In this document: positions 1,813 through 60,325 of the stretch, in pieces
Layout of the letters: every line of letters starts with the position of its first letter
How positions within the stretch are numbered: the stretch's first letter is position 1
NCBI GenBank assembly: GCA_023898525.1
Contig: CP060227.1
Location: 710,440 to 774,439, forward strand
Length of the DNA stretch: 64,000 nucleotides
Source of the DNA: Candidatus Nomurabacteria bacterium
GTDB taxonomy: Bacteria; Patescibacteriota; Minisyncoccia; Phycocordibacterales; UBA918
Reading direction: 5' to 3'
Translations under genes and position numbers: made by a program
The notes under the pieces: generated by a model
The model's input: only the letters and a program-made list of their open reading frames with translations
Told to the model about the DNA's origin: nothing
Databases searched by the model: none

Positions 1813-2736
1813 CTACTTCCGCTTCGAGTGGAATTTTTTGTGGACGGCTCTTAGGTGTGCGTCAGTGACGTGAGTGTAGATCTGAGTGGTACCGATGTGT
1901 GCATGACCAAGGAGCGCCTGCACTGAGCGGAGGTCAGCACCGTTGCTTAAGAGGTCAGTCGCAAAACTGTGACGGATAACGTGCGGAGTAACTTTGCGTA
2001 CAATACCAGCTTTGGCGGCGTAGCGTTTGAGAAGTCTTTGTACTGCGCGCGGGGAGATGCGTGCGTCCTCACCGACATGAGCCTTTTTACCGTAGCGAAT
2101 GAAGAGAGCATCGTCCATGTCTTTGCGAGCCGCTAAATATTTTTTGATCGCTGACTTGGCTTCGTCGGACAAAAACACCACCCGGATTTTGTCACCCTTA
2201 CCTCTGACGGAAAACTCATCACGAGACAAATCGATATCATCAATCGACAAGGAGCAAAGTTCAGAAATACGCAGACCGGTCGAAAACAGAAGTTCCAAGA
2301 TAGCTCGGTCACGCTTACCTTCGAGGCTGTCCGTTGATGGTGCATTAAGAAGACGATTTAGTTCCACGGTCGAGATTAGGTCCAGTGAGCGCTCGGGAAT
2401 TTTGGCTAACTCAATTCTTTCGGGTGATAAAGATTCTACACCCTGCTTACGTAAGTACTTGAGAAACGCGCGTAAAGCAATGAGATAATAGTTCTGAGTC
2501 CGACGTTTCATGGGTTCTGTTTTACCACCAATTTTGGTTCCGGCTTGACGGTTTAGGTAGAGTCGAAATTCACGCACCTGTTTCTCGGTAATATCTCTAG
2601 GGAGTTTTGCCTTACTAAAATCAAAAAATCTGGATATGTAGCGATCATAATTCTCCACCGTCTTTACACTTCGTCCCCTCTCGATTTCCAAGTACTCTAG
2701 AAATTGTTGTTTTAGTTCGACAAGCTTCATACCCAC
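1813..2736 (-). CDS. site-specific tyrosine recombinase XerC/XerD family
   Basis: C-terminal catalytic motifs 'HVIRHSFATDLL...GADLRSVQALLGHAHIGTTQIYTHV' and an N-terminal core-binding domain; 307 aa. Confidence 0.8.
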   Translation of the reverse strand: MGMKLVELKQQFLEYLEIERGRSVKTVENYDRYISRFFDFSKAKLPRDITEKQVREFRLYLNRQAGTKIGGKTEPMKRRTQNYYLIALRAFLKYLRKQGVESLSPERIELAKIPERSLDLISTVELNRLLNAPSTDSLEGKRDRAILELLFSTGLRISELCSLSIDDIDLSRDEFSVRGKGDKIRVVFLSDEAKSAIKKYLAARKDMDDALFIRYGKKAHVGEDARISPRAVQRLLKRYAAKAGIVRKVTPHVIRHSFATDLLSNGADLRSVQALLGHAHIGTTQIYTHVTDAHLRAVHKKFHSKRK

Positions 2737-2794
2737 TATTATACATAGTAAAATTAACCATGGCTTTGACAGCCTGTCTAACTCTTGGCCTGAC

Positions 2795-2823
2795 TTGCTT
2801 TTATTCTTTTTTTATGCTATAGT
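2795..2823 (+). promoter_or_regulatory. sigma70-like promoter upstream of rpsO (TTGCTT-17nt-TATAGT)
   Basis: -35 TTGCTT at 2795-2800, a 17-nt spacer, and -10 TATAGT at 2818-2823. An 89-nt leader with hairpins follows. Confidence 0.3.
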
Positions 2824-2912
2824 AATTCCAACCTTCGCGGTTATCACTGCGTACTCCTTATAGGCACTCACGGTGCGTATCTAGTATAAGAGAGACGTTT
2901 CACAAAAATTTT

Positions 2913-3179
2913 ATGTTAACAAAAAGAGTAAAGGAGAATGTATTAAAGAGTAATCGTCGTCATGATGCTGACACCGGTTCACCGGAAGCTCAGGTGGCGC
3001 TACTCACCAGACAGATTGAAGAACTTTCAACTCACTTGCGCAAGCATAAGAAAGATTTTCACTCTCGTCGTGGACTATTACAGATGGTAGCCGACCGACG
3101 CAAACATCTTAAGTACCTAGAGAAGAAAGACGAGAAAGCCTATAAAGCTACTCTCAAGAATCTCGGTCTTAAGCGATAA
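2913..3179 (+). CDS. rpsO: 30S ribosomal protein S15
   Basis: 88-aa protein 'LTRQIEELSTHLRKHKKDFHSRRGLLQMVADRRKHLKYL' typical of S15, directly upstream of pnp. Confidence 0.9.
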   Translation: MLTKRVKENVLKSNRRHDADTGSPEAQVALLTRQIEELSTHLRKHKKDFHSRRGLLQMVADRRKHLKYLEKKDEKAYKATLKNLGLKR

Positions 3180-3185
3180 AACATT

Positions 3186-3215
3186 ATGCTCCGCTCTGGA
3201 GCATTTTGTTTTTTC
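3186..3215 (+). terminator. intrinsic terminator after rpsO
   Basis: Hairpin ATGCTCC-gctct-GGAGCAT followed by TTTTGTTTTTT. Confidence 0.6.
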
Positions 3216-3276
3216 GAGCTATAGTGTAGTCAGAAGGTTTTTAATAATTATAAAAAGTATTTTAATAAATTAATTC

Positions 3277-3852
3277 ATGAGAATAATTAGACACCCCGAT
3301 CAACGGGTGGCAATTTTGATAGACACACAAAACTTATATCACAGCGCGAAGAATTTATATAAGTCAAAAGTAAATTTTGGTGCGATTATAAAAAGTGCTT
3401 TGGGTGGTAGAAAATTAATTCGTGCCCTGTCTTATGTGGTCAACACTGAGAGTGGAGAGGAGAGTGCTTTCTTCGAGGCATTGGAGAAGGTTGGAATTGA
3501 GATCAAGACCAAGGACTTACAAATTTTTTATGGTGGCGCCAAAAAAGCCGACTGGGATGTGGGAATCGCGATAGATGCTGTCAAACTGGCACATAAAGTT
3601 GATTCAATAATTTTGGCTAGTGGTGACGGAGATTTTATTCCTATGGTGGAATATGTAAAAAGTCAGGGTTGCCAAGTTGAGGTGATTACTTTTGGCCGAT
3701 CGGCTTCATCTCGTTTGCGAGAAGTGGTAGATGACTTTATCGATATGGATGAAAATCCGCAAGAATTTTTAATTGGCTACAAAACTGGACGTCGAAAAAC
3801 AGGATCTAGAAAGCAGGTAAAAAAAAGACAGGCAAGAACTGATGATCTATAG
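3277..3852 (+). CDS. NYN/LabA-like domain protein (putative RNase)
   Basis: Motifs 'VAILIDTQNLYHS...' and 'LASGDGDFIPMVEYVKSQG' are characteristic of the LabA/NYN (PIN-like) fold. Confidence 0.55.
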   Translation: MRIIRHPDQRVAILIDTQNLYHSAKNLYKSKVNFGAIIKSALGGRKLIRALSYVVNTESGEESAFFEALEKVGIEIKTKDLQIFYGGAKKADWDVGIAIDAVKLAHKVDSIILASGDGDFIPMVEYVKSQGCQVEVITFGRSASSRLREVVDDFIDMDENPQEFLIGYKTGRRKTGSRKQVKKRQARTDDL

Positions 3853-3872
3853 AATTCTGAATCCAACACATA

Positions 3873-3910
3873 AAACGCGACTAGGCACTTGTGCCTAGTC
3901 GCGTTTTTGT
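3873..3910 (+). terminator. intrinsic terminator
   Basis: Hairpin AACGCGACTAGGCAC-ttg-TGCCTAGTCGCGTT followed by TTTTG. Confidence 0.6.
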
Positions 3911-4009
3911 TATGCTCATAGTTATTAGCGACAAGCTCTTTTGATTAGTAGATTTCAAAACCTTGAAATCTAAAACCAGAAGGGGTTGTCATAAGTAAAA
4001 AGAATAATC

Positions 4010-6127
4010 ATGCAAAAAGAAATATTTACAACTAAACTTGGAGAGAAAACTTTGACTGCTGAGTTTAATGACATGACAGCGCAAGCTAATGGTTCGGTCA
4101 TTATGACTTATGGGCAGACAGTCGTATTGGTAACTGCAGTTATGGGAAGTCGGGACACAGACCTACCATACTTCCCATTGTCGGTGGAGTTTGAAGAAAA
4201 ATTTTATGCCGCCGGTCAAATTCTCGGCAGTCGATTTATGCGTCGTGAAGGTCGACCGAGTGACGAAGCGATTTTATCAGCTCGTATTGTTGACCGTACC
4301 ATTCGTCCACTTTTTCCTTCTCATCTAAAAACTGATGTACAAGTAGTGGTGACTGTACTAGCGATGGGTGAAGATGATCCAGACGTTCTTGGGGTGATTG
4401 GTGCATCGTTGGCACTTAGTGTTTCTGATATACCTTGGCAAGGTCCGGTTGGGGCAGTTCGTATTGCTAAAAGTGCAAGTAAAGACGAACTTATAATTAA
4501 TCCAACTTATAAGGAGCGTGATGCTGATGACCTAGAATTTGAGATTTTGGCTTGTGGTAAGGACGGAAAAATTAATATGATCGAAACTGGTGCTAACGAA
4601 ATTAGCGAAGATAAAATAATCACAGCGTTGGAAGTCGCCTCGTCTCATCATTTGGTGTTAGAAGAATTTCAAACCAAAATTATTGAGAAACTTGGAAAAG
4701 AAAAACGTGTAGTGGAAGAGCCTGTTTTGCCAGAGAGCTTAGTAAGCTTATATAATTCAGTTTTTAAAACTCAGCTGGAAGATACTATGTTTAGTAATCG
4801 GGCCGGTAAAGATCATATATATGAATTAAAAAAAGATTTTCTAAAAGCCGTGGGAGAATTAGAAGATGATGTTAGCGAAAAATTGGCCGGGCATTTCTTT
4901 GAAGATATGATAGACCTAGAGCTTCACAAGGGTGCGGTGTTGAATAATAAGCGGGCGGATGGTCGAAGTATGGACGAGGTTAGAGAACTGTATGCACAAG
5001 CTGGGGGAGTATCACCGGTTCTTCATGGCTCGGGAATTTTTTATCGTGGTGGTACTCGCATTTTTTCTGCTTTGACTTTAGGTGGACCGGATGCAGCACA
5101 AATGATAGACACCATGGAGGAGCGTGAGGTGAAGAAGCGCTTTATGCACCATTATAACTTTCCTCCATTTTCTGTTGGTGAAACCGGAAGGGTTGGTGGA
5201 TTTAATCGTCGCATGATTGGCCATGGGGCATTAGCGGAAAAAGCACTACAGCCAGTTGTGCCGGATAAAGATGCCTTTCCGTACACCATTCGGCTGGTAT
5301 CAGAAACTATGTCAAGTAACGGATCAAGTTCGATGGGGTCAGTTTGCGCTTCGACCTTGGCCTTGATGGATGGTGGTGTACCAATCAAGCGACCAGTAGC
5401 CGGTATCGCCTCAGGAGTTATGATTTATGAAAACGGCCATGCTCTCCTTACCGATATCCAAGGACCGGAGGATGAATTTGGAGACATGGACTTTAAAGTA
5501 GCTGGGACCACAGAGGGAGTAACGGCAATTCAAATGGATGTAAAGGTTGATGGAATCAGTATACCTATATTAGGTGAAGCCTTGGAAAAGGCTCGGTTGG
5601 CACGTCTACATATATTAGATACCATGACCGCTACTATAGATACCCACCGACCGCACATTTCTCCGAATGCTCCTGAGGTAATTAGTTTAAACATATTACC
5701 AGAGCAAATTGGTTTGGTCATTGGTTCTGGCGGTAAGACCATAAACGCTATAAAGGATGAGTCAGGGGTGGAGGAAATCAATATTGAGGACGATGGCACG
5801 GTCTTTATTACCGGAAAAAATGGCACTACAAAACTAGCTAGTGACAAAATAAAGTCTCTTACCAAACGTTATGAGGTAGGTGAGCGAGCTGAGGCTACTG
5901 TAGTCAAAATAGCCACTTTTGGTGCTTTTGCCAAACTTGATGATTATAATGAAGGTTTGATACATATATCAGAAATTGCTCCAGAGCGGATTGAGTCAGT
6001 CGAAGGTGTGCTTAAGGTTGGGGATGTTGTTCCGGTCGTGGTTTCTAAAATTGAAGACGGTAAAATAGGATTGTCAATAAAGAAAGCAGATCCAGATTTT
6101 ATGGCTAAAAAAGCCACAGGTAACTAG
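4010..6127 (+). CDS. pnp: polyribonucleotide nucleotidyltransferase (PNPase)
   Basis: 705 aa with two RNase PH domains, a KH domain and an S1 domain ('GLIHISEIAPERIESVEGVLKVGDVV'); conserved rpsO-pnp linkage. Confidence 0.95.
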   Translation: MQKEIFTTKLGEKTLTAEFNDMTAQANGSVIMTYGQTVVLVTAVMGSRDTDLPYFPLSVEFEEKFYAAGQILGSRFMRREGRPSDEAILSARIVDRTIRPLFPSHLKTDVQVVVTVLAMGEDDPDVLGVIGASLALSVSDIPWQGPVGAVRIAKSASKDELIINPTYKERDADDLEFEILACGKDGKINMIETGANEISEDKIITALEVASSHHLVLEEFQTKIIEKLGKEKRVVEEPVLPESLVSLYNSVFKTQLEDTMFSNRAGKDHIYELKKDFLKAVGELEDDVSEKLAGHFFEDMIDLELHKGAVLNNKRADGRSMDEVRELYAQAGGVSPVLHGSGIFYRGGTRIFSALTLGGPDAAQMIDTMEEREVKKRFMHHYNFPPFSVGETGRVGGFNRRMIGHGALAEKALQPVVPDKDAFPYTIRLVSETMSSNGSSSMGSVCASTLALMDGGVPIKRPVAGIASGVMIYENGHALLTDIQGPEDEFGDMDFKVAGTTEGVTAIQMDVKVDGISIPILGEALEKARLARLHILDTMTATIDTHRPHISPNAPEVISLNILPEQIGLVIGSGGKTINAIKDESGVEEINIEDDGTVFITGKNGTTKLASDKIKSLTKRYEVGERAEATVVKIATFGAFAKLDDYNEGLIHISEIAPERIESVEGVLKVGDVVPVVVSKIEDGKIGLSIKKADPDFMAKKATGN

Positions 6128-10805: not shown

Positions 10806-11756
10806 TTAGAAAGGGTTCTTTGCTCCACGGACTTCAAAGTGAAGATGGGGGCCGGTAGATTTTCCGGTGCTACCCATGGCTCCAATAGTCTGTCCTTGGC
10901 TGACGTAGGCTCCGACTCCAACATCGTTTCGAGAAAGGTGGGCGTAGAGGGTTTGAGTGCCATTTTTATGTTTGATTACAATGTATTGACCATAGCCTCC
11001 GTTCCAACCAGAACTCTTAGAAACAATAACTTCACCGGCCGCAGCTGCTCTAATAGTTGAACCAATTGATCCAGCTAAGTCTACTGCGTTATAACCGTGA
11101 ATACCTTGTGTTTTTACTGCTCCGGGGGCTGGGTGAGTAAAGCCAGCGCTACTGGCGGAGGTAGAGCCGGAGGTTTTAGTCGGCTTAGCTGAAGTGGTTA
11201 TGGCCGGAGCTGAATGAATAGCACCACCAGGTACAACAATCACAGAACCAACTTCAAGTCCATCAGCGCTGGCCAATTGATTATAAGAAAGAATTTCTTC
11301 AGCATCACCCTCGTATTTTTTAGCAATTGAATTTATGGTGTCACCTTTCTTAACTACGTGACGAACTCCGGCTATTGGCAAAATGATCAAAGTTTGTCCG
11401 GCACGGATACTGGTGGCTTTAGTCAAATCGTTGGCCCAAAGTATAGTGTTTACCGTTACTCCATACATCTCGGCTACGTGTGACAAGGTATCGCCTTCGC
11501 GAACGGTGTAGATGCTGATTTCACCGTTTGAAGTGCGATTCAAGGCGATCACATCTTCACCAACTGGTCCGGAAGATACCAAAACTCCATCATCGACTAT
11601 TATTTCAGCTCCGCCACGTCCGCCAAGTGATGAATCAGGGGCTTGGTTGGCTGATAGTAAAGGAATATCAATTGGTGAAGTGGCTGCCGTGTTATTTGAA
11701 TCTGTTTCAAGTGGGGTAGTTGAAGATTTATCAAAAAAACCAGCCTTTACTGACAA
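10806..11756 (-). CDS. LysM-domain M23 family metallopeptidase (peptidoglycan endopeptidase)
   Basis: Two LysM repeats ('YTVREGDTLSHVAEMYGVTVNTILWAN', 'HVVKKGDTINSIAKKY') and the M23 motif 'GSTGKSTGPHLHFEV'. The annotated start is TTG. In frame upstream lies a hydrophobic segment 'YVFILSIIIIP' with no canonical start codon, so the true N-terminus is probably longer. Confidence 0.75.
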   Translation of the reverse strand: MSVKAGFFDKSSTTPLETDSNNTAATSPIDIPLLSANQAPDSSLGGRGGAEIIVDDGVLVSSGPVGEDVIALNRTSNGEISIYTVREGDTLSHVAEMYGVTVNTILWANDLTKATSIRAGQTLIILPIAGVRHVVKKGDTINSIAKKYEGDAEEILSYNQLASADGLEVGSVIVVPGGAIHSAPAITTSAKPTKTSGSTSASSAGFTHPAPGAVKTQGIHGYNAVDLAGSIGSTIRAAAAGEVIVSKSSGWNGGYGQYIVIKHKNGTQTLYAHLSRNDVGVGAYVSQGQTIGAMGSTGKSTGPHLHFEVRGAKNPF

Positions 11757-16108: not shown

Positions 16109-16118
16109 ACTTGATATT

Positions 16119-17500
16119 ATGCCCACCCTCCACCACCTCCTCCAAACCACCCTCACCTTCCTCTTCACCCTCACCCTCTCTTTTGTCAGTGTATACATCC
16201 CTCAACCATACCACCAAGTCAACCACGCCGAAGCCGGAGTCGCCACCTTCAGTGGTCAGTTGATGGGTCTGGCCGAACAAGCCGTCAGTGCCGCCGCCAA
16301 CGTGATGTCAGCGGCTATTGAGTCGGTCATCAGATTCAAGGAACTAGTCTGGGACCCCTTAGCCTGGAGTGTGGCCAAGGGCATGATCGCTGTCATGACT
16401 GCCAGTGTGGTCAGGTGGATCAACTCCGGTTTCCAAGGTTCCCCCGCCTTTGTCCAAGACCTGGAATACTACCTCTCCCGGGTTGGAGACCGAGTCTTTG
16501 GTGAATTCGTCAACGAACTCGGTATCGCCCCCTTTGTCTGCCGCCCCTTTAGACTTGACCTCCAAATCGCCCTCAACATCGGCTACCAAAGACACTACCG
16601 CGCCGGTTACCCAATTGGCGCCACCTACTGCAGCCTCGAAGGTGCTCTTGCCAACATCGACAACTTTGTTAACGGTAGCTTCAATGACGGTGGTTGGGAC
16701 ACTTGGTACACTGTCACCACCAGACCCAACACCTATACCCCCTATGGTAACTTCCTCTCCGTCAGTGGTGAAGCGGCTCTCAGAATCAACAACCAACAAG
16801 TTAACGCCACCCGTTTCCTAAACTTCGGTGACGGTTTCATGTCCAAAGCCATCTGTTCCCAAATCCCCATCATCACCGGCGGAGCGATTACCAGAGAACG
16901 TTGTGCTGTCTCTACTCCGGGACAAGTCATCAACCAAACTCTTAACCACCACCTTGGGGCCGGTCTCGACAGCCTCATCGCCGCTGATGAGATCGGTGAG
17001 ATCATTGGTGCTCTGGTGGGCCAACTGGCACAAAAGTCCCTGGAAGGCGCGGCCGGACTCCTTGGTCTCTCTGGTGGTACCGGCTACACCGACCCTAGCT
17101 ACGGTACCTCCTACCTGGATGCTGCTATTACCGAACAAACAGCCAGTTCTGCCGAAGCGGCTATCATCACCAACGCCAGCTCCACCAACGCCTACAACCA
17201 AGCGGCCAACCAAGCCGAACAACAAGGACAACAAAGAGCTGATAATGCACAGGCGGGAGCGGATAGTACGACGAATACTGGTAATACCGAACAACTATTG
17301 CAACAACTGATAGACATACTGGGAAGCGGAACTGTGATCACCCCAACTGACCCTAACACCACCACCCCACCAATTGGTCTTAGTGGTCCAATTGGACCGC
17401 AACCAATCACTGCTACTCCACTTTCCAGTGGTACCATCTTCGCTGCCCCTAATGGTTCCGGTACCGCTTGCTCTGAGGCGATGCCGTGTGATATTTGGAC
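16119..17500 (+). repeat. 1382-nt segment nucleotide-identical to 55368..56749 (N-terminal module of the beta-helix genes)
   Basis: Hand alignment over the leading bases shows identity beginning at the ATG (constant offset 39249). Identity ends after 'gatatttggac' (17501 g vs 56750 t). The embedded six-frame sub-ORFs (e.g. 16359..16799 = 55608..56048) translate identically. Confidence 0.85.
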
Positions 17501-18470
17501 GGCTATTGGTAAGGCAGGGGCGGGAGATGTGGTATTCCTAAGAGGGGGAACTTATCAGGTAACACAAAACATTCCTTTCTATAAACAAGGTACAGCCTCT
17601 AATCCAATAGTATTTGAAAGTTATCTGGGAGAGAAAGCGGTGTTTGACGGTAGTCAGCATGCGAAGGGGACTGGTGTACTTATACGAGTAAACGGAAAAT
17701 ACAATGTTCTTAGAAATATCGAAATTAGAAACATGCCAAGAGAAGGTATCTTTATAGAAGGTACAGACAATATATTGGATGGTGTATATGTTCATGGTAG
17801 CACCCTAGATGGCATCAAAGTCTTTAGTCCATACGCCAACTATCCGTACGGACAATACGGCTCTCGCAACACCATCCGCAACTGTATTGTCCACGACAGT
17901 TCTGATGCTGGATTAACCAGCGCCGGATTTGCTGACGGTGGACAGGCTGATGGTGTGTCAATAGCCTCTGGTGACAGTAACCGAGTGGAACATTGTTTGG
18001 TCTACCACAACTCTGATGACGGTATAGATGCTTGGCGTTCTACCAACACCTACTTTGGCTATAATATTGTTAGCTCTAACGGTATTGCTAGTGGTGACGG
18101 GAATGGTATTAAGGCCGGAAGTTCACAAGGTCAAAGCTTCAATACTCTGGCTGAACGTAATATTGTCTACTCTAACCGGGCTACTGCTCTGGACTATAAT
18201 GGAGGTACTAATGCTACTTTCCGCTATAATACCACTTGGCAAAATGGTCAAGCCCACACCTTCGGCGACGCTATCAATTCTGCTACTGCCAACATCTCCT
18301 CTAACGAACCTCTTGGCTTCATCTCCTCTGGCGCTCAATCTAAAGTCACCAACAACTCCTGGCAACGCTCTGGCACCGTCCAGTTCATCAGCACCAACCC
18401 AAGCTCACCAGACTTCTTAAGACCAACCGTGGGTGGAGGTTTTGAGGACATTGGAGCGTATGCGCAGTAG
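16119..18470 (+). CDS. large surface protein A: signal/TM anchor, conserved GC-rich N-terminal module, and right-handed parallel beta-helix C-terminal cassette
   Basis: Start set at 'MPTLHH' (ATG 16119) to match the paralogue at 55368. PbH1-type repeats ('NCIVHDSSDAGL', 'HNSDDGIDAWRSTNTYFGYNIV'). The cassette is bounded by '...GTIFAAPNGSGTACSEAMPCDIWTA' and the C-terminal tail 'NNSWQRSGTVQFISTNPSSPDFLRPTVGGGFEDIGAYAQ'. Confidence 0.75.
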   Translation: MPTLHHLLQTTLTFLFTLTLSFVSVYIPQPYHQVNHAEAGVATFSGQLMGLAEQAVSAAANVMSAAIESVIRFKELVWDPLAWSVAKGMIAVMTASVVRWINSGFQGSPAFVQDLEYYLSRVGDRVFGEFVNELGIAPFVCRPFRLDLQIALNIGYQRHYRAGYPIGATYCSLEGALANIDNFVNGSFNDGGWDTWYTVTTRPNTYTPYGNFLSVSGEAALRINNQQVNATRFLNFGDGFMSKAICSQIPIITGGAITRERCAVSTPGQVINQTLNHHLGAGLDSLIAADEIGEIIGALVGQLAQKSLEGAAGLLGLSGGTGYTDPSYGTSYLDAAITEQTASSAEAAIITNASSTNAYNQAANQAEQQGQQRADNAQAGADSTTNTGNTEQLLQQLIDILGSGTVITPTDPNTTTPPIGLSGPIGPQPITATPLSSGTIFAAPNGSGTACSEAMPCDIWTAIGKAGAGDVVFLRGGTYQVTQNIPFYKQGTASNPIVFESYLGEKAVFDGSQHAKGTGVLIRVNGKYNVLRNIEIRNMPREGIFIEGTDNILDGVYVHGSTLDGIKVFSPYANYPYGQYGSRNTIRNCIVHDSSDAGLTSAGFADGGQADGVSIASGDSNRVEHCLVYHNSDDGIDAWRSTNTYFGYNIVSSNGIASGDGNGIKAGSSQGQSFNTLAERNIVYSNRATALDYNGGTNATFRYNTTWQNGQAHTFGDAINSATANISSNEPLGFISSGAQSKVTNNSWQRSGTVQFISTNPSSPDFLRPTVGGGFEDIGAYAQ

Positions 18471-31166: not shown

Positions 31167-32678
31167 ATGAGTAATAAATTATTTGTTAAGCCACGTTTTA
31201 TCATGCAAGTTCAAAAAGTTTCGCTTTCAGTTTTAGTTATCAGCTTTGTATTCGCCTTGCTTTTCTTCCTAGCCCCATCTTTTTCTTATGCTCAAGCAGT
31301 GGAAGACTGTCAATTTAGCCGCACCTTGGAGGATGGGGTTGATGGTGAGGATGTGCGCTGTTTGCAAAGGTATTTAAATGCTTCTGGTTTTCAAATTGCG
31401 GAAAGTGGCCCGGGGGCACCAGGAGGTGAAACTTCGCTTTTTCGAACTTTGACCAGGGAAGCGGTGGTTAAGTGGCAGCAGGCTAAAAAGATAACCCCGG
31501 CTAGTGGAGTGTTTGGAGATAAGTCTAGAGCGGTCTATATGATGGATGTCTTGGCTAAACTTCAATTAGAAAAAAGTAAACAGGAAGCACCTTTGGTGAC
31601 GATTAATCCTATATCTGTAGTTAAACCACAGCCGACTGTTGTGGCCCAAGTAACTAGCTCTAATACCAAGGACAAAGAAGAGGCAGAAAGACAAATAATA
31701 TTTGTTTTGGCTATGATAATCGACGCTTACGAAGAAATAGGTAATATACGTAGTGATGATCCAGACGAAGCTGCAGATATTGATGAAGATGTACAGAGTG
31801 CTTTGAGAGACTTAGGTGATGTCCTCGAACAATACTTTGACGGAGAATTTAAGAGATCTAAAAGTTTAGCCCTTGATGTGCTGGATGATGCGACTGATTC
31901 TTTTGAGGACGCTGGTGGTGAGTCAGATAAAAGCAAGGCCGAAGATATCCTTGATGATGTCGAAGATTTATACAATGACATTGATGATTTGATTGACGAG
32001 GCAGAAGACGAAGATGAAGAAGTGGGTGATGCTCCTGACTTACTAGGTGAAGCGAAAGATCACTTGGATGATGCCAAAGATGCTTTCGATGATGGTGTAT
32101 ATAGTCAGGCTATTAGTGACGCGCTTGATGCTGAGGAGCTGCTAGAGGAAGCCCGTGGCGAGATAGATATAATTTCAGAAAATGATGCAGAGGCGTTTGT
32201 TGAAGATGTGCGAGATGAGCTAGGAAATGCTAGGGATGAGGTAAGTGACTCTAATGCAGACAGGGATGATGTAGAGGAAGCCGAGGGTCTTCTTGATAGC
32301 GCGGAACGTCGTCTAAAGAAAGCTGACATAGCTGTTGATGAAGAAGATTTTCGTAAGGCCGCTGATCTGGCGAAAGAGGCAGAGGAAATGATAGACGAGG
32401 CCCTTGATTTGGTGGATGGGTCAACAAAACGTGACGATGATGATAAGGCAGAAGATGCTTTAGATGATGCTAAGGATGAGCTGGGAGATGCTTGGAAAAA
32501 AGCAGAGAAGGCAAGTGATAAGGGAAAAAGTACTCGTAGTACAGAAAAGAAGTTAGCTAAGGCCGATGATCTATTGGACGAAGCGGGAGATGCGCTGGAT
32601 GATGAGGATTATGATGAGGTGCTAGATTTGGTAGATGAGGCACTAGACTTGATTGATGAAGCTTTGGATGAGATTTAG
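31167..32678 (+). CDS. secreted acidic repeat protein with a putative peptidoglycan-binding (PG_binding_1-like) domain
   Basis: Signal/TM 'VSLSVLVISFVFALLFFLAPSFSYAQA'. PG-binding-like 'CLQRYLNASGFQIAESGPGAPGGETSLFRTLTREAVVKWQQAKKITPASGVFGDKSRAVY'. A ~350-aa D/E-rich repetitive region follows (LDDAKDAFDDG..., LDEAGDALDDEDYDEVLDLVDEALDLIDEALDEI). Confidence 0.55.
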   Translation: MSNKLFVKPRFIMQVQKVSLSVLVISFVFALLFFLAPSFSYAQAVEDCQFSRTLEDGVDGEDVRCLQRYLNASGFQIAESGPGAPGGETSLFRTLTREAVVKWQQAKKITPASGVFGDKSRAVYMMDVLAKLQLEKSKQEAPLVTINPISVVKPQPTVVAQVTSSNTKDKEEAERQIIFVLAMIIDAYEEIGNIRSDDPDEAADIDEDVQSALRDLGDVLEQYFDGEFKRSKSLALDVLDDATDSFEDAGGESDKSKAEDILDDVEDLYNDIDDLIDEAEDEDEEVGDAPDLLGEAKDHLDDAKDAFDDGVYSQAISDALDAEELLEEARGEIDIISENDAEAFVEDVRDELGNARDEVSDSNADRDDVEEAEGLLDSAERRLKKADIAVDEEDFRKAADLAKEAEEMIDEALDLVDGSTKRDDDDKAEDALDDAKDELGDAWKKAEKASDKGKSTRSTEKKLAKADDLLDEAGDALDDEDYDEVLDLVDEALDLIDEALDEI

Positions 32679-37724: not shown

Positions 37725-37765
37725 TAATTTGGTTTTTTTAAACTTGATTTTAGTTACCAAGACAC

Positions 37766-37803
37766 GCAAAAACGCCGCCCATATATGGGCGGCGTTTTTG
37801 CGT
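37766..37803 (+). terminator. intrinsic terminator after rplE (left edge of island 2)
   Basis: Hairpin GCAAAAACGCCGCCC-atatat-GGGCGGCGTTTTTGC. Confidence 0.65.
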
Positions 37804-55217: not shown

Positions 55218-55367
55218 AAAACTAAACCCCCGTGCCGTAGGCGAGGGGTCAATCCATCTTTTATGATTTTTGTTAATATAACAAGCTCCTAATACACACA
55301 CCATCAATAAAATCAGGCATAATCTCTACATTTCATTGCTATAATAATAAAATAACCCACATTATCT

Positions 55368-57989
55368 ATGCCCACCCTCCACCACCTCCTCCAAACCACC
55401 CTCACCTTCCTCTTCACCCTCACCCTCTCTTTTGTCAGTGTATACATCCCTCAACCATACCACCAAGTCAACCACGCCGAAGCCGGAGTCGCCACCTTCA
55501 GTGGTCAGTTGATGGGTCTGGCCGAACAAGCCGTCAGTGCCGCCGCCAACGTGATGTCAGCGGCTATTGAGTCGGTCATCAGATTCAAGGAACTAGTCTG
55601 GGACCCCTTAGCCTGGAGTGTGGCCAAGGGCATGATCGCTGTCATGACTGCCAGTGTGGTCAGGTGGATCAACTCCGGTTTCCAAGGTTCCCCCGCCTTT
55701 GTCCAAGACCTGGAATACTACCTCTCCCGGGTTGGAGACCGAGTCTTTGGTGAATTCGTCAACGAACTCGGTATCGCCCCCTTTGTCTGCCGCCCCTTTA
55801 GACTTGACCTCCAAATCGCCCTCAACATCGGCTACCAAAGACACTACCGCGCCGGTTACCCAATTGGCGCCACCTACTGCAGCCTCGAAGGTGCTCTTGC
55901 CAACATCGACAACTTTGTTAACGGTAGCTTCAATGACGGTGGTTGGGACACTTGGTACACTGTCACCACCAGACCCAACACCTATACCCCCTATGGTAAC
56001 TTCCTCTCCGTCAGTGGTGAAGCGGCTCTCAGAATCAACAACCAACAAGTTAACGCCACCCGTTTCCTAAACTTCGGTGACGGTTTCATGTCCAAAGCCA
56101 TCTGTTCCCAAATCCCCATCATCACCGGCGGAGCGATTACCAGAGAACGTTGTGCTGTCTCTACTCCGGGACAAGTCATCAACCAAACTCTTAACCACCA
56201 CCTTGGGGCCGGTCTCGACAGCCTCATCGCCGCTGATGAGATCGGTGAGATCATTGGTGCTCTGGTGGGCCAACTGGCACAAAAGTCCCTGGAAGGCGCG
56301 GCCGGACTCCTTGGTCTCTCTGGTGGTACCGGCTACACCGACCCTAGCTACGGTACCTCCTACCTGGATGCTGCTATTACCGAACAAACAGCCAGTTCTG
56401 CCGAAGCGGCTATCATCACCAACGCCAGCTCCACCAACGCCTACAACCAAGCGGCCAACCAAGCCGAACAACAAGGACAACAAAGAGCTGATAATGCACA
56501 GGCGGGAGCGGATAGTACGACGAATACTGGTAATACCGAACAACTATTGCAACAACTGATAGACATACTGGGAAGCGGAACTGTGATCACCCCAACTGAC
56601 CCTAACACCACCACCCCACCAATTGGTCTTAGTGGTCCAATTGGACCGCAACCAATCACTGCTACTCCACTTTCCAGTGGTACCATCTTCGCTGCCCCTA
56701 ATGGTTCCGGTACCGCTTGCTCTGAGGCGATGCCGTGTGATATTTGGACTGCAGCGGCTAAGGCCAAGGCGGGAGATGTGGTATTCCTTAGAGGGGGAAC
56801 TTACAATATTACAAGGCGAATAACTATGGATAACCAAGGTACCGCCTCCAACCCGGTGATCTATGAGAGTTACCCAGGGGAGAAGGCGGTGTTTGATGGT
56901 AGTCAGCATGTAAAGGGGACTAATGTTTGGTTAAGAATCTCTGGCAAGTTTATCAAGTTGCGTAACTTAGAAGTTAAAAACATGCCAAGAGAAGGTGTGT
57001 TTATAAGTGGTACTGATAATATAGTCGAAGGTTTAAATGTTCATGGAAGTGGTCTGAGCGGTATACACATATTCAGTCCCTATGAAGCGTACCCTTATGG
57101 TCAATATGGCTCTAGAAACACAATTATTAACAATACTGTTTATGACAGTTCAGATGTAGGTCTTGCTTCTGGCGGTATTGGTAATGGAGGAAACGCAGAT
57201 GGCATAAAGATTTCAAGTGGAGGTGATAACAAAATAAAGAACAATCTAGTATACAAGAACTCCGATGATGGTATTGACGCTTGGCGATCGACCAATACTT
57301 ATATTGGTTACAATATTGTTCATTCAAGTGGTCTTGGAGATGGTGATGGTAACGGTATTAAGGCTGGAGGTAAGTCTCCTAGTTCAGGTACATATGTTGA
57401 ACGAAATATATCATACTCAAATAAGTCAAGTGGTATTGATCACAACACAGGTGTTAATTTAACTTTTATCAATAATACTACCTGGAATAATCCTGTTGGT
57501 TATAGAATAGGTTCTGATACAAAAGCTATTAATAACATCGCAGCAGAAACCAGTATATTTGGTGTCGGTACCCAAACCAACAACTCCTGGCAACACTCCG
57601 ATACTCTTCAGTTCATCAGTACCGACCCTAACTCACCTGACTTCTTAAGACCGACAGTTGGAGGAGGATTTGAGGATATTGGAGTGTATGGTACCGGTGG
57701 TGGTACTACTCAGACACCTACTCCACCAACCCCAACCCCTACTCCAATTGGTCTTGGTGGCCCAATCGGCCCACAACCAGTCACTGCTACCGCTCTAGCT
57801 AAAGGTACTATCTTTGCTGCCCCTAACGGCTCCGGTACCGCTTGCTCAGACGCTAATCCTTGCGACATCTGGACAGCAGTTGGCAAAGCGGGTGCAGGGG
57901 ATGTGGTGTTCTTGAGAGGGGGAACATACAGGTTAAATGGTATTTTAGACATATCAAAGCACGGTACCGCATCAAACCAAACCCGATAA
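55368..57989 (+). CDS. large surface protein B: same N-terminal module as gene A plus a divergent beta-helix cassette B1; terminated by a frameshift at the start of a second cassette
   Basis: The first 1382 nt are identical to 16119..17500. Cassette B1 'DIWTAAAKAKAGDVVFLRGGTYNITRR...NNSWQHSDTLQFISTDPNSPDFLRPTVGGGFEDIGVYG' is followed by linker 'TGGGTTQTPTPPTPTPTPIGLGGPIGPQP' and the start of cassette B2. The stop at 57987 results from an AAACC-AAACC tandem duplication. Confidence 0.7.
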   Translation: MPTLHHLLQTTLTFLFTLTLSFVSVYIPQPYHQVNHAEAGVATFSGQLMGLAEQAVSAAANVMSAAIESVIRFKELVWDPLAWSVAKGMIAVMTASVVRWINSGFQGSPAFVQDLEYYLSRVGDRVFGEFVNELGIAPFVCRPFRLDLQIALNIGYQRHYRAGYPIGATYCSLEGALANIDNFVNGSFNDGGWDTWYTVTTRPNTYTPYGNFLSVSGEAALRINNQQVNATRFLNFGDGFMSKAICSQIPIITGGAITRERCAVSTPGQVINQTLNHHLGAGLDSLIAADEIGEIIGALVGQLAQKSLEGAAGLLGLSGGTGYTDPSYGTSYLDAAITEQTASSAEAAIITNASSTNAYNQAANQAEQQGQQRADNAQAGADSTTNTGNTEQLLQQLIDILGSGTVITPTDPNTTTPPIGLSGPIGPQPITATPLSSGTIFAAPNGSGTACSEAMPCDIWTAAAKAKAGDVVFLRGGTYNITRRITMDNQGTASNPVIYESYPGEKAVFDGSQHVKGTNVWLRISGKFIKLRNLEVKNMPREGVFISGTDNIVEGLNVHGSGLSGIHIFSPYEAYPYGQYGSRNTIINNTVYDSSDVGLASGGIGNGGNADGIKISSGGDNKIKNNLVYKNSDDGIDAWRSTNTYIGYNIVHSSGLGDGDGNGIKAGGKSPSSGTYVERNISYSNKSSGIDHNTGVNLTFINNTTWNNPVGYRIGSDTKAINNIAAETSIFGVGTQTNNSWQHSDTLQFISTDPNSPDFLRPTVGGGFEDIGVYGTGGGTTQTPTPPTPTPTPIGLGGPIGPQPVTATALAKGTIFAAPNGSGTACSDANPCDIWTAVGKAGAGDVVFLRGGTYRLNGILDISKHGTASNQTR

Positions 57990-58861
57990 CATTTGAAAGC
58001 TACCCGGGGCAGAAAGCGGTGTTTGATGGCAGTAATCATCCTCGTGGTGCTAATATTAAAATTAGAATTAGCGGTAGCTTCATTCATTTTAGAAATATTG
58101 AAATCAGAAATATGCCAAAAGAAGGTATAATGATTGAAGGTTTTTCTGGAACCCAAACAGCTGGTAACGACAATTTAATTGAGGGAGTTACCGTGCATAA
58201 TAATGGATTGTCTGGAATACATGTATTTAGTCCTTACGATGAATATCCATATGGTGCCTTTGGCTCACGAAATGTTATACGAAATTGTACAGTCTATAGA
58301 AATTCTGATTATACTGGTGATCCTACTAGTGGCGGTAATGCAGATGGTATTAAGATATCTAGTGGTGATTCAAACCGTGTCGAAAACTGCATAAGCTATG
58401 AAAACTCTGACGACGGAATTGATGCGTGGCGATCTACTAATACTTACTTTGGTTATAATATTTCCTATGGAAACGGTATCAATAACCCAGGTCATGATGG
58501 TAATGGTATAAAGGCTGGCGGCATATCAGCGATTACTAATGGAACAATTGTCGAGAGAAACCTAATTTATAATAACCTAGGTTATGGTGGTATTATTCAT
58601 AACAATGGTAAGGATCTGACATTTATAAATAATACTGTATGGAATAATGCGAATTATAGTATTGCTCATTCAAAAGAGGTGGTTAGTCGCAACAATATAG
58701 CTGTTGGACAGTTAGGGCCTAGTAATCCAGCGGTAGCTACCAACAACTCCTGGCAACGCTCCGGCACCGTAGAGTTCATCAGTACCAACCCAAGCTCACC
58801 AGACTTCCTAAGACCAACCGTCGGGGGAGGGTTTGAGGATATTGGGGTGTATGCGCAGTAG
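57744..58861 (+). pseudogene. frameshifted, promoterless third beta-helix cassette (B2), a 'silent cassette' candidate
   Basis: The cassette begins with the conserved junction 'PIGLGGPIGPQPVTATALAKGTIFAAPNGSGTACSDANPCDIWTA' in the gene-B frame and continues after the frameshift in ORF 57860..58861 ('PITFESYPGQKAVFDG...NNSWQRSGTVEFISTNPSSPDFLRPTVGGGFEDIGVYAQ'). Confidence 0.55.
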
Positions 58862-58896
58862 ATACGGTAATTAATATAGAGTAAATAGTAGATAAG

Positions 58897-58925
58897 TAAA
58901 AAGAGCGCACCGCGCTCTTTTTACT
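58897..58925. terminator. bidirectional intrinsic terminator
   Basis: Hairpin AAAAAGAGCGC-acc-GCGCTCTTTTT between convergent beta-helix gene B and rplT. Confidence 0.65.
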
Positions 58926-58928
58926 TAT

Positions 58929-59273
58929 TTACTTAACGTTCTCTACAATTCTTGCAAAAGCTTCTGGTCGGTCTTTTGCGATAGTGGCTAGAACCTTACG
59001 GTCTAGTTCAACATTTTTGTCCTTAAGTTGCTTTATAAAACGGCTATATTTTAGACCAAGAGCCATCAAAGCGGCGTTGATACGAACTGTCCAAAGGCGA
59101 CGAAAATCATTCTTTCTATCCTTACGGTGGGCAAAAGCGTGTAGCTGTGCATGATAGATAGCTTCGCGGGCTACTCGCTTTTTCTTTGATCGTTGTAGAC
59201 GATAGCCTTTAACTTCATCAAGAATATTGCGTCGTCTTTTCTGGGCCATTAGGCCTCCTTTTACTCGTGCCAT
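58929..59273 (-). CDS. rplT: 50S ribosomal protein L20
   Basis: 'MARVKGGLMAQKRRRNILDEVKGYR...'. Confidence 0.9.
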   Translation of the reverse strand: MARVKGGLMAQKRRRNILDEVKGYRLQRSKKKRVAREAIYHAQLHAFAHRKDRKNDFRRLWTVRINAALMALGLKYSRFIKQLKDKNVELDRKVLATIAKDRPEAFARIVENVK

Positions 59274-59304
59274 ATTATCTGTTTATTACTACTAAAATTT
59301 GAGA

Positions 59305-59496
59305 TTACGCACCGGTCTTTGGTAGAAAACGGCGAGTAATACGCTTACTAAGGGTAAGAGTCTGGGCGCGTTTGCGGCGCAGGCGCTGCTGTCCGCTCTG
59401 GCGAGCGTTGAAGTGGTTTTGTCCGGGTTTACGAGCCACTAACTTACCATTTTTTGTCACTTTTATTCTTTTTGTGAATGATTTATTTGTCTTCAT
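59305..59496 (-). CDS. rpmI: 50S ribosomal protein L35
   Basis: 'MKTNKSFTKRIKVTKNGKLVARKPGQNHFNA'. Confidence 0.85.
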   Translation of the reverse strand: MKTNKSFTKRIKVTKNGKLVARKPGQNHFNARQSGQQRLRRKRAQTLTLSKRITRRFLPKTGA

Positions 59497-59572
59497 AATT
59501 TAATATCTTTGCTAGATTTGAAGTGACAGAACTATAGCGTATCTGAGCATCAATGTCAAAGCTTTTTCTAGC

Positions 59573-60325
59573 TTAAATCATCCCACCCTCAAGTAGGTCG
59601 TCCAGGCTCTTTTTCTTTGATTTTCCAACAATTTTTTCCTTGTTAGTAACTTCTTTTTTAGTATCAGCTTTTAGGACCGGTTTACTATTACCACCTTTTT
59701 GCCCAGCCATTCTTTCGAGTGTGATAGTGAAACCTTTAGGACTTTTTTTTATTTCGTCGGCTACTTTATATTCGGCTGGAATTATCTTTAAAAATCTGTC
59801 TAAACGCTCTTTGAGGAAGTTTTCTTCCATATATTTGTAGCGACCCCAGAGGAAGAGATCTATTTTTACTCTGTGTCCCTCTTCTAGCCACTCTGCCACC
59901 CGTTTAGCTTTTAGTTGTTGATCGTGTTCACCAGTACCAATTTTGACTTGAACACTCTTGGTCTCTGTGACATGGGACTTGGCCTTTACTTCACGAGCTT
60001 TTCGGCCGGTTTGATAGCGGTATTTACCAAAATCCATAATTTTAGCCACTGGAGGAGTCGCGTTTGGAGAAATTTCAATAAGGTCCAAATTGCGTGACTC
60101 GGCTTCTTTTAACGCTTCCGGCACACTCAAAACACCCAAGTTTTCACCTTCGGGTCCAACGACTCGCAATTCTTCAGCTCTAATAGCCTGATTGATACGA
60201 GTTCTATTTTTGTTGTAATTGGTGTAAGGTTTTGACAAGAAAATTTGGCTTAATGAATAATAATCTAGCTTTAACTGAGATGTGCCTTGTGAACTACTGA
60301 TTTTTGCAGTACCAACGTCAGGCAA
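59573..60325 (-). CDS. infC: translation initiation factor IF-3 (start codon uncertain; Lys-rich C-terminal extension)
   Basis: 'RINQAIRAEELRVVGPEGENLGVLSVPEALKEAESRNLDLIEISPNATPPVAKIMDFGKYRY'. The conserved core begins ~43 codons after the annotated Met; IF3 commonly uses a non-AUG start (candidate ATC at 60194-60196). Confidence 0.8.
   Translation of the reverse strand: MPDVGTAKISSSQGTSQLKLDYYSLSQIFLSKPYTNYNKNRTRINQAIRAEELRVVGPEGENLGVLSVPEALKEAESRNLDLIEISPNATPPVAKIMDFGKYRYQTGRKAREVKAKSHVTETKSVQVKIGTGEHDQQLKAKRVAEWLEEGHRVKIDLFLWGRYKYMEENFLKERLDRFLKIIPAEYKVADEIKKSPKGFTITLERMAGQKGGNSKPVLKADTKKEVTNKEKIVGKSKKKSLDDLLEGGMI

Follow-up and report, generated by a model that had tools for sequence, protein, structure and literature searches.

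A probably recent five-base tandem duplication truncates a two-domain lyase-like gene in a Patescibacteria genome

Spontaneous frameshifts caused by short tandem duplications, and the young pseudogenes that result from them, have a recognizable form: a frame-shifting insertion (of a length not divisible by three) copies the adjacent bases, an early stop appears a few codons further on, the conserved downstream frame is still intact, and the gene caller divides the locus into two coding sequences. Repeats in coding regions may also act as switches. The known contingency tracts, such as the CTCTT repeats of the Neisseria opa genes and the tetranucleotide repeats of Haemophilus influenzae, lie in surface-associated genes in which the copy number sets the reading frame; these tracts consist of many units, and the rate of slippage drops steeply at low copy number. 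In the pilE/pilS genes of Neisseria and vlsE of Borrelia, multigene families with conserved 5′ parts and variable 3′ parts recombine between copies, and in dnaX and the transposases of the IS3 family, overlapping frames are fused by −1 ribosomal frameshifting to yield the full-length protein. Here we describe a gene that resembles each of these systems in some respect. Its domains appear to be related to the PL9 lyases (Dickeya Pel9A, PelL and PelN, and the Bacteroides thetaiotaomicron rhamnogalacturonan lyase, PDB 5OLQ), which form a right-handed parallel beta-helix (PF13229, PF22842).

The window analyzed, a stretch of 64,000 nucleotides from contig CP060227.1 of a Candidatus Nomurabacteria bacterium, belongs to a genome that was assembled from a metagenome as a single contig of 1.09 Mb. 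Within it, the gene designated B is represented in GenBank by two coding sequences, both labelled 'right-handed parallel beta-helix repeat-containing'. Its features, and the paralogue A that was used as the intact reference in the comparisons, are as follows.

55368..57989, plus strand: ORF1, 873 aa, the truncated product (GenBank USN87506.1)
55368..56402, plus strand: N-terminal module (about 345 aa), in which a helical domain follows a hydrophobic N-terminus
56622..57689, plus strand: B1, an intact right-handed beta-helix domain (PF13229; PL9/PelN-like similarity)
57690..57746, plus strand: Gly/Thr/Pro-rich linker GTGGGTTQTPTPPTPTPTP, connecting B1 and B2 in one frame
57747..57973, plus strand: leading part of B2 in frame 0 (IGLGGPIGPQP...HGTAS)
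57974..57983, plus strand: tandem duplication AAACC AAACC, one unit more than in the paralogues
57987..57989, plus strand: premature TAA in frame 0, produced by the duplication
57980..58861, plus strand: rest of B2, read in the −1 (+2) frame (NPITFESYPG...GVYAQ), ending in TAG at 58859-58861, with no internal stop
58112..58861, plus strand: GenBank coding sequence on the B2 remnant (USN87507.1, P0016), 249 aa
58892..58928, no strand assigned: hairpin with a 17-bp stem and T-runs on both sides, 31 nt 3′ of the B2 stop, resembling a bidirectional terminator
16119..18470, plus strand: paralogue A (P0002), 783 aa, the N-terminal module and one beta-helix domain

The first open reading frame consists of the N-terminal module, B1, the linker and 77 leading residues of B2, followed by QTR and the stop, and a second open reading frame in the +2/−1 frame extends from 57860 to 58861. 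Positions 57969-57989 read gca tca aac caa acc cga taa (TCA-AAACC-AAACC-CGA-TAA), in which the period-5 run is CAAACCAAACC at 57973-57983 (2.2 copies). Deletion of 57974-57978 in silico resulted in an uninterrupted open reading frame of 1162 codons (55368-58861), reading ...HGTASNPITFESYPGQKAVFDG... and containing, in order, the N-terminal module, the PL9-like beta-helix B1, the Pro/Thr linker and the beta-helix B2. The original prediction had attributed the frameshift to a 5-bp duplication as opposed to a homopolymer miscall, and this is borne out by the two AAACC units and by the restoration of the frame when one is removed; the creation of the TAA at 57987 by the extra unit can be read directly from the sequence.

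Comparison with related sequences places the break at the same point. At the duplication site, the homology detected by tblastn leaves frame 3 and continues in frame 2. In the codon alignment, the site reads GGT ACA GCC TCT AAT CCA ATA GTA in paralogue A, GGT ACC GCC TCC AAC CCG GTG ATC in B1 and GGT ACC GCA TCA AAC CCG ATA ACA in repaired B2, which agrees with the GTASNP sequence predicted earlier as the ancestral state. All 23 outside homologues (41-58% identical to B2) are uninterrupted through the site, and the ESY triplet located five codons beyond the shift (residues 82-84 of repaired B2) is invariant among them. No repeat was found at the homologous site in A, in B1 or in any of these 23 sequences. 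The AAACC tract is not unusual as a repeat, as the window contains 68 two-copy pentanucleotide runs compared to 51 ± 7 in shuffled sequences. The element that rises above chance is that the extra 5 bases coincide exactly with the jump of the homology from frame 0 to frame −1.

An exact-protein look-up of the 249-aa remnant led to two Logan contigs assembled from raw reads. Both are 2.2 kb long, unbranched and of the two-copy allele; the contig from SRR12358676 is 100% identical to positions 57656-59854 of the window and that from SRR12358675 to positions 57656-59851. The two runs are numbered consecutively and probably come from the genome's own study, so they represent separate assemblies and perhaps not separate populations. 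A single AAACC, the outcome that had been expected of an assembly error, was seen in neither contig. Judged from these two read-set assemblies, the sampled population carries the two-copy allele, and the duplication is not an assembly error because two separate assemblies of raw runs carry the identical allele. An artefact of sequencing, polishing or assembly, with a true gene that has one AAACC and encodes 1162 aa, would fit a single-contig metagenome-assembled genome and a gene located amid repeated paralogous sequence, where polishing can err. Against it, the two k-mer-based Logan assemblies match the window over the whole 2.2 kb, duplication included, and a clean 5-bp tandem duplication outside a homopolymer is an atypical platform error. 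The site also lies outside the near-identical paralogue stretches (B2 has about 60% protein identity to B1 and A, and DNA identity to A around the site is about 71%), and the other large genes of the window are uninterrupted. The artefact reading is largely refuted, and we regard it as exceedingly improbable.

The sequence beyond the break was then compared with the intact domains. There are no stops in the 290 codons past the shift, and the motifs GGNADG, NSDDGID and GNGIKAGG are retained. Of 54 columns that are invariant among the outside homologues, 48 are kept by B2, 51 by B1 and 49 by intact A; with the threshold lowered to 90% (100 columns), the corresponding counts are 87, 93 and 88. 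The dN/dS values 3′ of the shift were 0.09 for B2 versus B1 and 0.16 for B2 versus A, with 0.10 for B1 versus A, and they are a coarse indication only because dS between the domains is saturated (values >1). From the lack of nonsense codons in B2, the neutral divergence that has built up after the shift is bounded at less than about 0.10 substitutions per site (95%), or 0.022 (50%). The proposal that the remainder of B2 is intact in the shifted frame was therefore confirmed, with conserved residues kept about as well as in A, and the signs of old decay, namely downstream stops or an excess loss of conserved residues, were not observed. B2 is not decayed, which suggests that the frameshift event was recent.

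The explanation we consider likely is a genuine, recent and spontaneous frameshift by slippage duplication that shortens the protein to 873 aa, with no indication of a programmed or reversible role. Slippage during replication would have copied the 5-base unit (AAACC, equivalently CAAAC) twice in the Ser-Asn-Pro codons of B2, and the extra 5 bases would push the ribosome into a frame that ends at the TAA, three codons on. The original gene would have encoded 1162 aa, made up of an N-terminal anchoring or secretion-associated module and two PL9-like domains of the polysaccharide-lyase type, while the current product would be a protein of 873 aa that consists of the module, B1 and a B2 stub of 77 residues. 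The other 294 codons of this domain would be transcribed as 3′ untranslated RNA and remain outside the protein. The earlier claim that B2 is cut off from the translated protein holds as a direct consequence of the stop, and the non-translation of the remnant itself is a step that we infer.

There are two ways in which the remnant might still be translated. One is independent initiation, at ATG 58112 as annotated or at GTG 58019, which would give a separate protein. GenBank lists the 249-aa coding sequence, the fragment retains motifs of the catalytic type, and there is a weak purine-rich stretch 5′ of GTG 58019, but no Shine-Dalgarno-like sequence precedes ATG 58112 and no homologue begins there, the homologues spanning 93-99% of the domain. 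The product would lack the hydrophobic N-terminal module, and its beta-helix would be shorter by about 125 residues and have no cap, so its export and folding are doubtful. We consider a separate protein very unlikely, and the 249-aa entry USN87507.1 is most likely a by-product of gene calling and not a real protein.

The other is programmed −1 ribosomal frameshifting or transcriptional slippage, by which the 873-aa protein would be made together with a full-length protein of about 1164 aa containing the trans-frame peptide ...GTASNPNPITFE... (ASN-PNPITFE). The downstream frame is indeed the −1 frame and stays open over the 38 codons that precede the stop (57860-57989), and a −1 shift anywhere in this region would fuse the two parts. 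However, 57855-57989 is free of X_XXY_YYZ heptamers, even with relaxed two-of-three re-pairing, and its homopolymers are all shorter than 6. For a segment of 131 nt that covers the site and the sequence following it, the minimum free energy is −27.9 kcal/mol, compared to an average of −26.6 for shuffled sequences (z = −0.35), and all aligned homologues are contiguous across the site with no frame break. Both forms of recoding were rejected on the lack of a slippery site, of a homopolymer run and of a downstream RNA structure, and we give them almost no probability.

The original prediction had also offered two functional interpretations, and these fared differently from its account of the duplication, the frameshift and the intact B2, which stood. 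The first was a phase switch, in which slippage alternates, at a rate relevant to the population, between a one-copy state of the AAACC tract that displays B1-B2 and a two-copy state that displays B1 alone. The tract is a frame-shifting 5-nt repeat within the coding sequence of what is probably a surface or secreted enzyme, B2 is fully intact so that reversion would restore its function, and mutations that remove exactly one copy of a tandem duplication arise comparatively easily. On the other hand, the tract has only 2.2 units, and contingency loci with tetra- or pentanucleotides usually have at least 5 or 6. It was born of the mutation itself, given that the corresponding site is free of repeats in A, B1 and the 23 homologues. 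The window contains about 68 two-copy pentamer runs of a similar kind, which is near the chance level, and the two read sets yield the identical allele in unbranched contigs.

The species was also looked for in other collections, with the aim of seeing the allele in further populations, and was not found. Protein searches with the repaired full protein, the B2 domain and a 114-aa junction query returned no intact allele; a protein with the intact junction was absent among 5.8 billion clusters, which is a weak negative because the 114-aa query returned almost no candidates. A scan of JGI metagenomes with peptide patterns and a search with an exact DNA pattern in which the site could hold 0-10 bases both gave no match. 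None of the collections searched held a second strain or close relative, and the scan of GTDB species representatives found only relatives of 34-54% identity, in Flavobacterium and in two metagenome-assembled genomes of Myxococcota type, which are labelled Polyangiaceae and Myxococcales. The phase-switch claim was not upheld, and such variation is, in our estimate, very improbable. A low-rate version, in which the tract is a reversible on/off switch of the second lyase head and a minority of cells carry B1-B2, has an equally slim chance of being correct. If it were true, an ultra-small episymbiotic bacterium would use the switch on a surface enzyme that is linked to a type IV secretion neighbourhood.

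The second interpretation was that B2 serves as a silent cassette, a donor of sequence to the expressed paralogues by recombination or gene conversion, with the frameshift either irrelevant or helping to silence it. Gene B belongs to a family that makes such exchange conceivable, with at least 4 paralogues in the genome that share a near-identical 5′ module and differ in their 3′ enzyme heads. The DNA of gene B (from 55365) and of paralogue A (from 16116) is 100% identical for about 1385 nt, and the N-terminal module is near-identical in four copies that carry different enzyme heads. The starts and ends of B1 and B2 are 74-84% identical in DNA and the 3′ end of B2 is 91% identical to that of A, which shows past recombination among these genes. 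The organization of gene B argues against a donor role. Once repaired, B2 continues the B1 reading frame through the linker, which distinguishes it from a separate copy that lacks a promoter. The stop and terminator of the gene belong to B2, and no terminator-like site is present between B1 and B2, the hairpin at 58892..58928 being the only one after the gene. Intact tandem-domain proteins are also known: P0004, from the same genome, and P0007, from another assembly, have two complete beta-helix domains each, and P0017 has one such domain followed by part of a second. The first domain of P0004 is the closest relative of B2 in the genome. A dN/dS of about 0.1 indicates that B2 was selected as a translated protein, the DNA of the window shows a single extra domain and no array, and a frameshift in the body of a cassette would disable that part as a recombination donor. 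The silent-cassette claim is not supported, and we judge it highly improbable.

The N-terminal module common to the family had no sequence match in Pfam, NCBIfam or PDB. Its AlphaFold model reached moderate confidence only (pLDDT 70.5, pTM 0.41), and a Foldseek search of this model against PDB found nothing at E 0.001 or better. The family also adjoins type IV secretion genes in a relative.

The enzyme heads were assigned by profile and structure-sequence matches. PF13229 matched the ORF1 protein in the B1 region (3.2e-12) and B2 (3.6e-14), the Pel9A-like family PF22842 matched at 5e-4, under its own cut-off, and PDB 5OLQ matched at E = 3.9e-4. The PelN equivalog profile NF041899 gave 60 bits for B1, with a cut-off of 740, and did not match B2. 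By these profile scores, B1 and B2 appear to be relatives of PL9 and not PelN equivalogs. In B2, residues D198, D220, D221, D224 and K254 show no variation across the family alignment and line up with the corresponding motifs in 5OLQ; we take them to be putative counterparts of the Pel9A catalytic residues (the Ca-binding Asp cluster and the catalytic Lys).

For the annotation, our data indicate that USN87506.1 and USN87507.1 are really one recently broken gene of 1162 aa. The frameshift is an ordinary mutation and offers no new mechanistic lesson. It gives a snapshot of ongoing domain loss in a Patescibacteria genome that is streamlined, at 1.09 Mb. The gene family concerned is clearly being reshuffled, and perhaps the more interesting matter is this family of enzyme heads on a shared N-terminal module.

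Compared with the PL9 lyases, the domains described here have the same right-handed parallel beta-helix, and the Asp-rich and Lys motifs (GGNADG, NSDDGID, GIKAGG) are common to both; the alignment spans about 300 residues between B1 and PelN and about 240 between B2 and 5OLQ. They differ in scoring far under the equivalog cut-off and in being arranged in tandem on a Patescibacteria-specific N-terminal module. The overlapping frames recall those of dnaX and the IS3-family transposases, and they occur here without a slippery site, a stimulatory structure or a conserved break. The family resembles pilE/pilS and vlsE in its conserved and variable parts and its inter-copy recombination, whereas B2 is an in-frame tandem domain of an expressed gene and not part of a promoterless archive, and the modules are enzymes about 60% identical to each other and not variants of one antigen. 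With the opa and H. influenzae loci, gene B shares a probable surface association and a frame set by copy number, in this case of a pentanucleotide; it has two copies instead of many, in a tract that is absent from paralogues and homologues, and no variation in copy number is seen between the assemblies of the two read sets. From spontaneous tandem-duplication frameshifts, by comparison, the locus shows no essential difference: the inserted bases copy their neighbours, the stop follows within a few codons, the downstream frame is intact, and the gene caller has divided the locus in two. Only the second, duplicated enzyme domain is lost in this case, and therefore the gene as a whole is probably still functional.

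The sequence gca tca aac caa acc cga taa, at window positions 57969-57989, carries AAACC twice in tandem within a period-5 run, CAAACCAAACC, at 57973-57983, which is followed by a TAA stop at 57987-57989. The reading frames of gene B at this site are as follows.

55368-57989, forward strand: ORF1, 873 aa, terminating at this TAA; identical to GenBank USN87506.1
57860-58861, forward strand: second open reading frame, in the +2/-1 frame, running on to a TAG stop
58112-58861, forward strand: USN87507.1, a 3′ remnant left by the frameshift, for which GenBank gives a 249-aa "right-handed parallel beta-helix repeat-containing protein" starting at ATG 58112

Removal of 57974-57978 gave a single 1162-codon open reading frame, the translation of which contains HGTASNPITFESYPGQKAVFDG. 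When this repaired protein was compared with the window by tblastn, homology lay in frame 3 right up to the duplication and in frame 2 from there on, and an intact 783-aa paralogue, gene A, was found at 16119-18467. A codon alignment of the three beta-helix domains (that of A, and B1 and repaired B2 of gene B) was guided by protein.

Codons at the duplication site in the protein-guided alignment
A: GGT ACA GCC TCT AAT CCA ATA GTA
B1: GGT ACC GCC TCC AAC CCG GTG ATC
Repaired B2: GGT ACC GCA TCA AAC CCG ATA ACA

Two-copy pentamer runs number 68 in the window versus 51 ± 7 in shuffled sequences, and such a run alone is unremarkable; what stands out here is that it falls exactly on the frame break. 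The window sequence, the reading frames and the paralogue alignment show that the original prediction described the duplication, the frames and the stop correctly in every detail.

The source of USN87506.1 is a Candidatus Nomurabacteria genome assembled from a metagenome (one contig of 1,087,875 bp, locus tags H6779_), and the window is ordinary chromosome that encodes PNPase, UvrD, KsgA, EF-G, EF-Tu, ribosomal proteins, SecY, RNase J, IF-3 and phosphoketolase. The exact USN87507.1 protein was recovered from two Logan assemblies of public runs, on contigs of 2199 bp (SRR12358676) and 2196 bp (SRR12358675) that both start at window position 57656, span the duplication and are 100% identical to the window, AAACCAAACC included. 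Because both contigs contain the duplication, it is very unlikely to have entered the deposited genome as an assembler or polishing artefact. Neither contig branches across the duplication, which speaks weakly against an abundant alternative allele; a minority alternative allele may exist. The organism was not found elsewhere in the GTDB species representatives, in a 5.8-billion-cluster protein collection, or in the JGI metagenomes by peptide pattern or by an exact DNA pattern permitting either allele.

The repaired protein consists of a hydrophobic N-terminus with a helical module (approximately 345 aa together), a low-complexity linker, B1, a Gly/Thr/Pro linker and B2. Both B1 and B2 match PF13229; B1 also aligns with the PelN (PL9) model, at a score far under the model cut-off, and B2 with the PL9 rhamnogalacturonan lyase 5OLQ. 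Two complete beta-helix domains are present in the intact relatives P0004, from the same genome, and P0007, from another assembly, while in P0017 one complete domain precedes an incomplete second one; P0006, itself a partial protein, stops inside its second. Other organisms, too, repeatedly have two-domain proteins of this subfamily, which often carry CARDB or peptidoglycan-binding domains as well. P0006, with 55% identity to the query, lies on a 3-kb contig of a metagenome-assembled genome labelled Pseudomonadaceae, a label that may reflect a binning error or horizontal transfer.

In terms of mechanism, replication slippage most likely copied the five bases in TC-AAACC-CG twice; the unit CAAAC starts with C and has C next after it, giving 1 nt of microhomology. 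The ribosome would then terminate three codons past the duplication, so that the cell product would be an 873-aa protein with the N-terminal module, complete B1 and a 77-residue B2 stub, and the second enzyme head would be lost. The mechanistic core of the original prediction, loss of B2 through a slipped-strand 5-bp duplication, is supported. The B2 remnant might instead be translated independently as a separate protein, as its GenBank entry has it; however, no Shine-Dalgarno-like sequence precedes ATG 58112, GTG 58019 has only a weak one, and the product would have neither the N-terminal module nor about 125 of the domain's residues. The 249-aa coding sequence is probably a by-product of gene calling and not a real protein, and USN87506.1 and USN87507.1 should be annotated as one frameshifted gene.

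Past the frameshift, B2 has no stop in 290 codons, where 93 single substitutions could create one; being nonsense-free implies a neutral divergence since the event below about 0.10 substitutions/site (95%) or 0.022 (50%), with indels ignored. In the alignment that includes 23 outside homologues (identity to B2 of 41-58%), the columns invariant among these homologues are kept at 48/54 positions by B2, 51/54 by B1 and 49/54 by intact A, and those at the 90% threshold at 87/100, 93/100 and 88/100, respectively. The motifs GGNADG, NSDDGID and GNGIKAGG are kept in B2 and align to the corresponding motifs of 5OLQ. The dN/dS past the frameshift is 0.09 for B2 versus B1, 0.16 for B2 versus A and 0.10 for B1 versus A, values that, with dS saturated, say only that purifying selection dominated the history of B2. 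Since B2 is stop-free, keeps the conserved columns and motifs and has a low dN/dS, the old decay that would have counted against slippage is not seen; B2 has not decayed, and the duplication, judged from sequence, appears to be recent.

Gene B shares its N-terminal module with gene A and with a large, unnamed family (about 3990 cluster representatives at E <= 1e-3, mostly 460-600 aa).

55368-56402, forward strand: N-terminal module of gene B, approximately 345 aa
16119-17153, forward strand: N-terminal module of gene A
2194-4221 of Logan contig L006: another member of the module family

Pfam, NCBIfam and PDB gave no match for the module, and its AlphaFold model, helical and of moderate confidence (pLDDT 70.5, pTM 0.41), has no PDB fold match. 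On L006 the gene order is KsgA, a conserved 300-aa protein, the module member, TrbL_3, PrgI, a TraC-like protein and a VirB4-like ATPase; in the window it is KsgA (14235), a 300-aa gene (15206; its protein 40% identical to that of L006) and gene A (16119), then EF-G instead of secretion genes. KsgA is a frequent virB4 neighbour in Patescibacteria according to a published survey (PMC12102498). It is possible that the module belongs to the Patescibacteria type IV secretion system, as a component or a substrate not described before.

Over about 1385 nt (55365-56749 and 16116-17500) the DNA of genes A and B is 100% identical. This stretch begins 3 nt before the ATG and ends within the first beta-helix coils; upstream of it the two genes have unrelated DNA, and downstream of it they are 41-74% identical per 100-column block. 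Two further paralogues, P0003 and P0005, encoded elsewhere in the same 1.09-Mb genome, have the first 337 residues in common except for one Ile/Leu, and their heads are a beta-helix plus SGNH esterase and a different lyase-like domain. Such a pattern, a common N-terminal module and exchangeable heads, resembles the outcome of concerted evolution or of gene conversion. The 3′ end of B2 (58739-58861) is 91% identical in DNA to that of A (18348-18470) and 84% to the end of B1 (57576-57690), and B2 and A both finish in ...YAQ-stop, so that the "native" gene end appears to be on B2 and B1 to be an inserted or duplicated unit; alternatively, the ends of B1, B2 and A were exchanged by recombination.

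Two palindromic elements in the window have the form of bidirectional terminators, the second of the intrinsic type.

58892-58928, no strand: strong hairpin with a 17-bp stem, 31 nt past the B2 stop, with A-runs and T-runs on both sides
37764-37803: perfect 40-nt palindrome, ACGCAAAAACGCCGCCCATATATGGGCGGCGTTTTTGCGT, between two forward-strand genes

The former sits between convergent gene B and the ribosomal protein L20 gene (58929-59273, reverse strand), identified through PF00453 on Logan contig L004 (1274-1594). The window also has cell-wall-directed genes, at 10806-11756 (reverse strand) and 31167-32678 (forward strand), for a LysM plus Peptidase_M23 protein and a PG_binding_1 protein, which fits an organism investing in envelope-degrading or envelope-binding surface proteins.

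B2 had also been proposed to be a silent cassette. It continues the B1 frame with no terminator found in front of it, has the gene's own stop and is followed by the hairpin, and this proposal is not sustained. Ribosomal or transcriptional recoding was rejected: 57855-57989 contains no slippery heptamer, relaxed ones included, and no homopolymer of at least 6, downstream RNA structure is not above shuffles (z = -0.35), and none of the 23 homologues has a frame break at the duplication.

Established contingency loci depend on long tracts. The AAACC tract has 2.2 units and was created by the mutation, no repeat exists at this position in A, B1 or any of the 23 homologues, and the two read sets agree on the allele, all of which argues against the suggested repeat-number phase switch. 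Mutations of this kind are very well known and the frameshift adds one more; its value is mainly as an annotation correction and as a sign that the gene family is still being remodelled.
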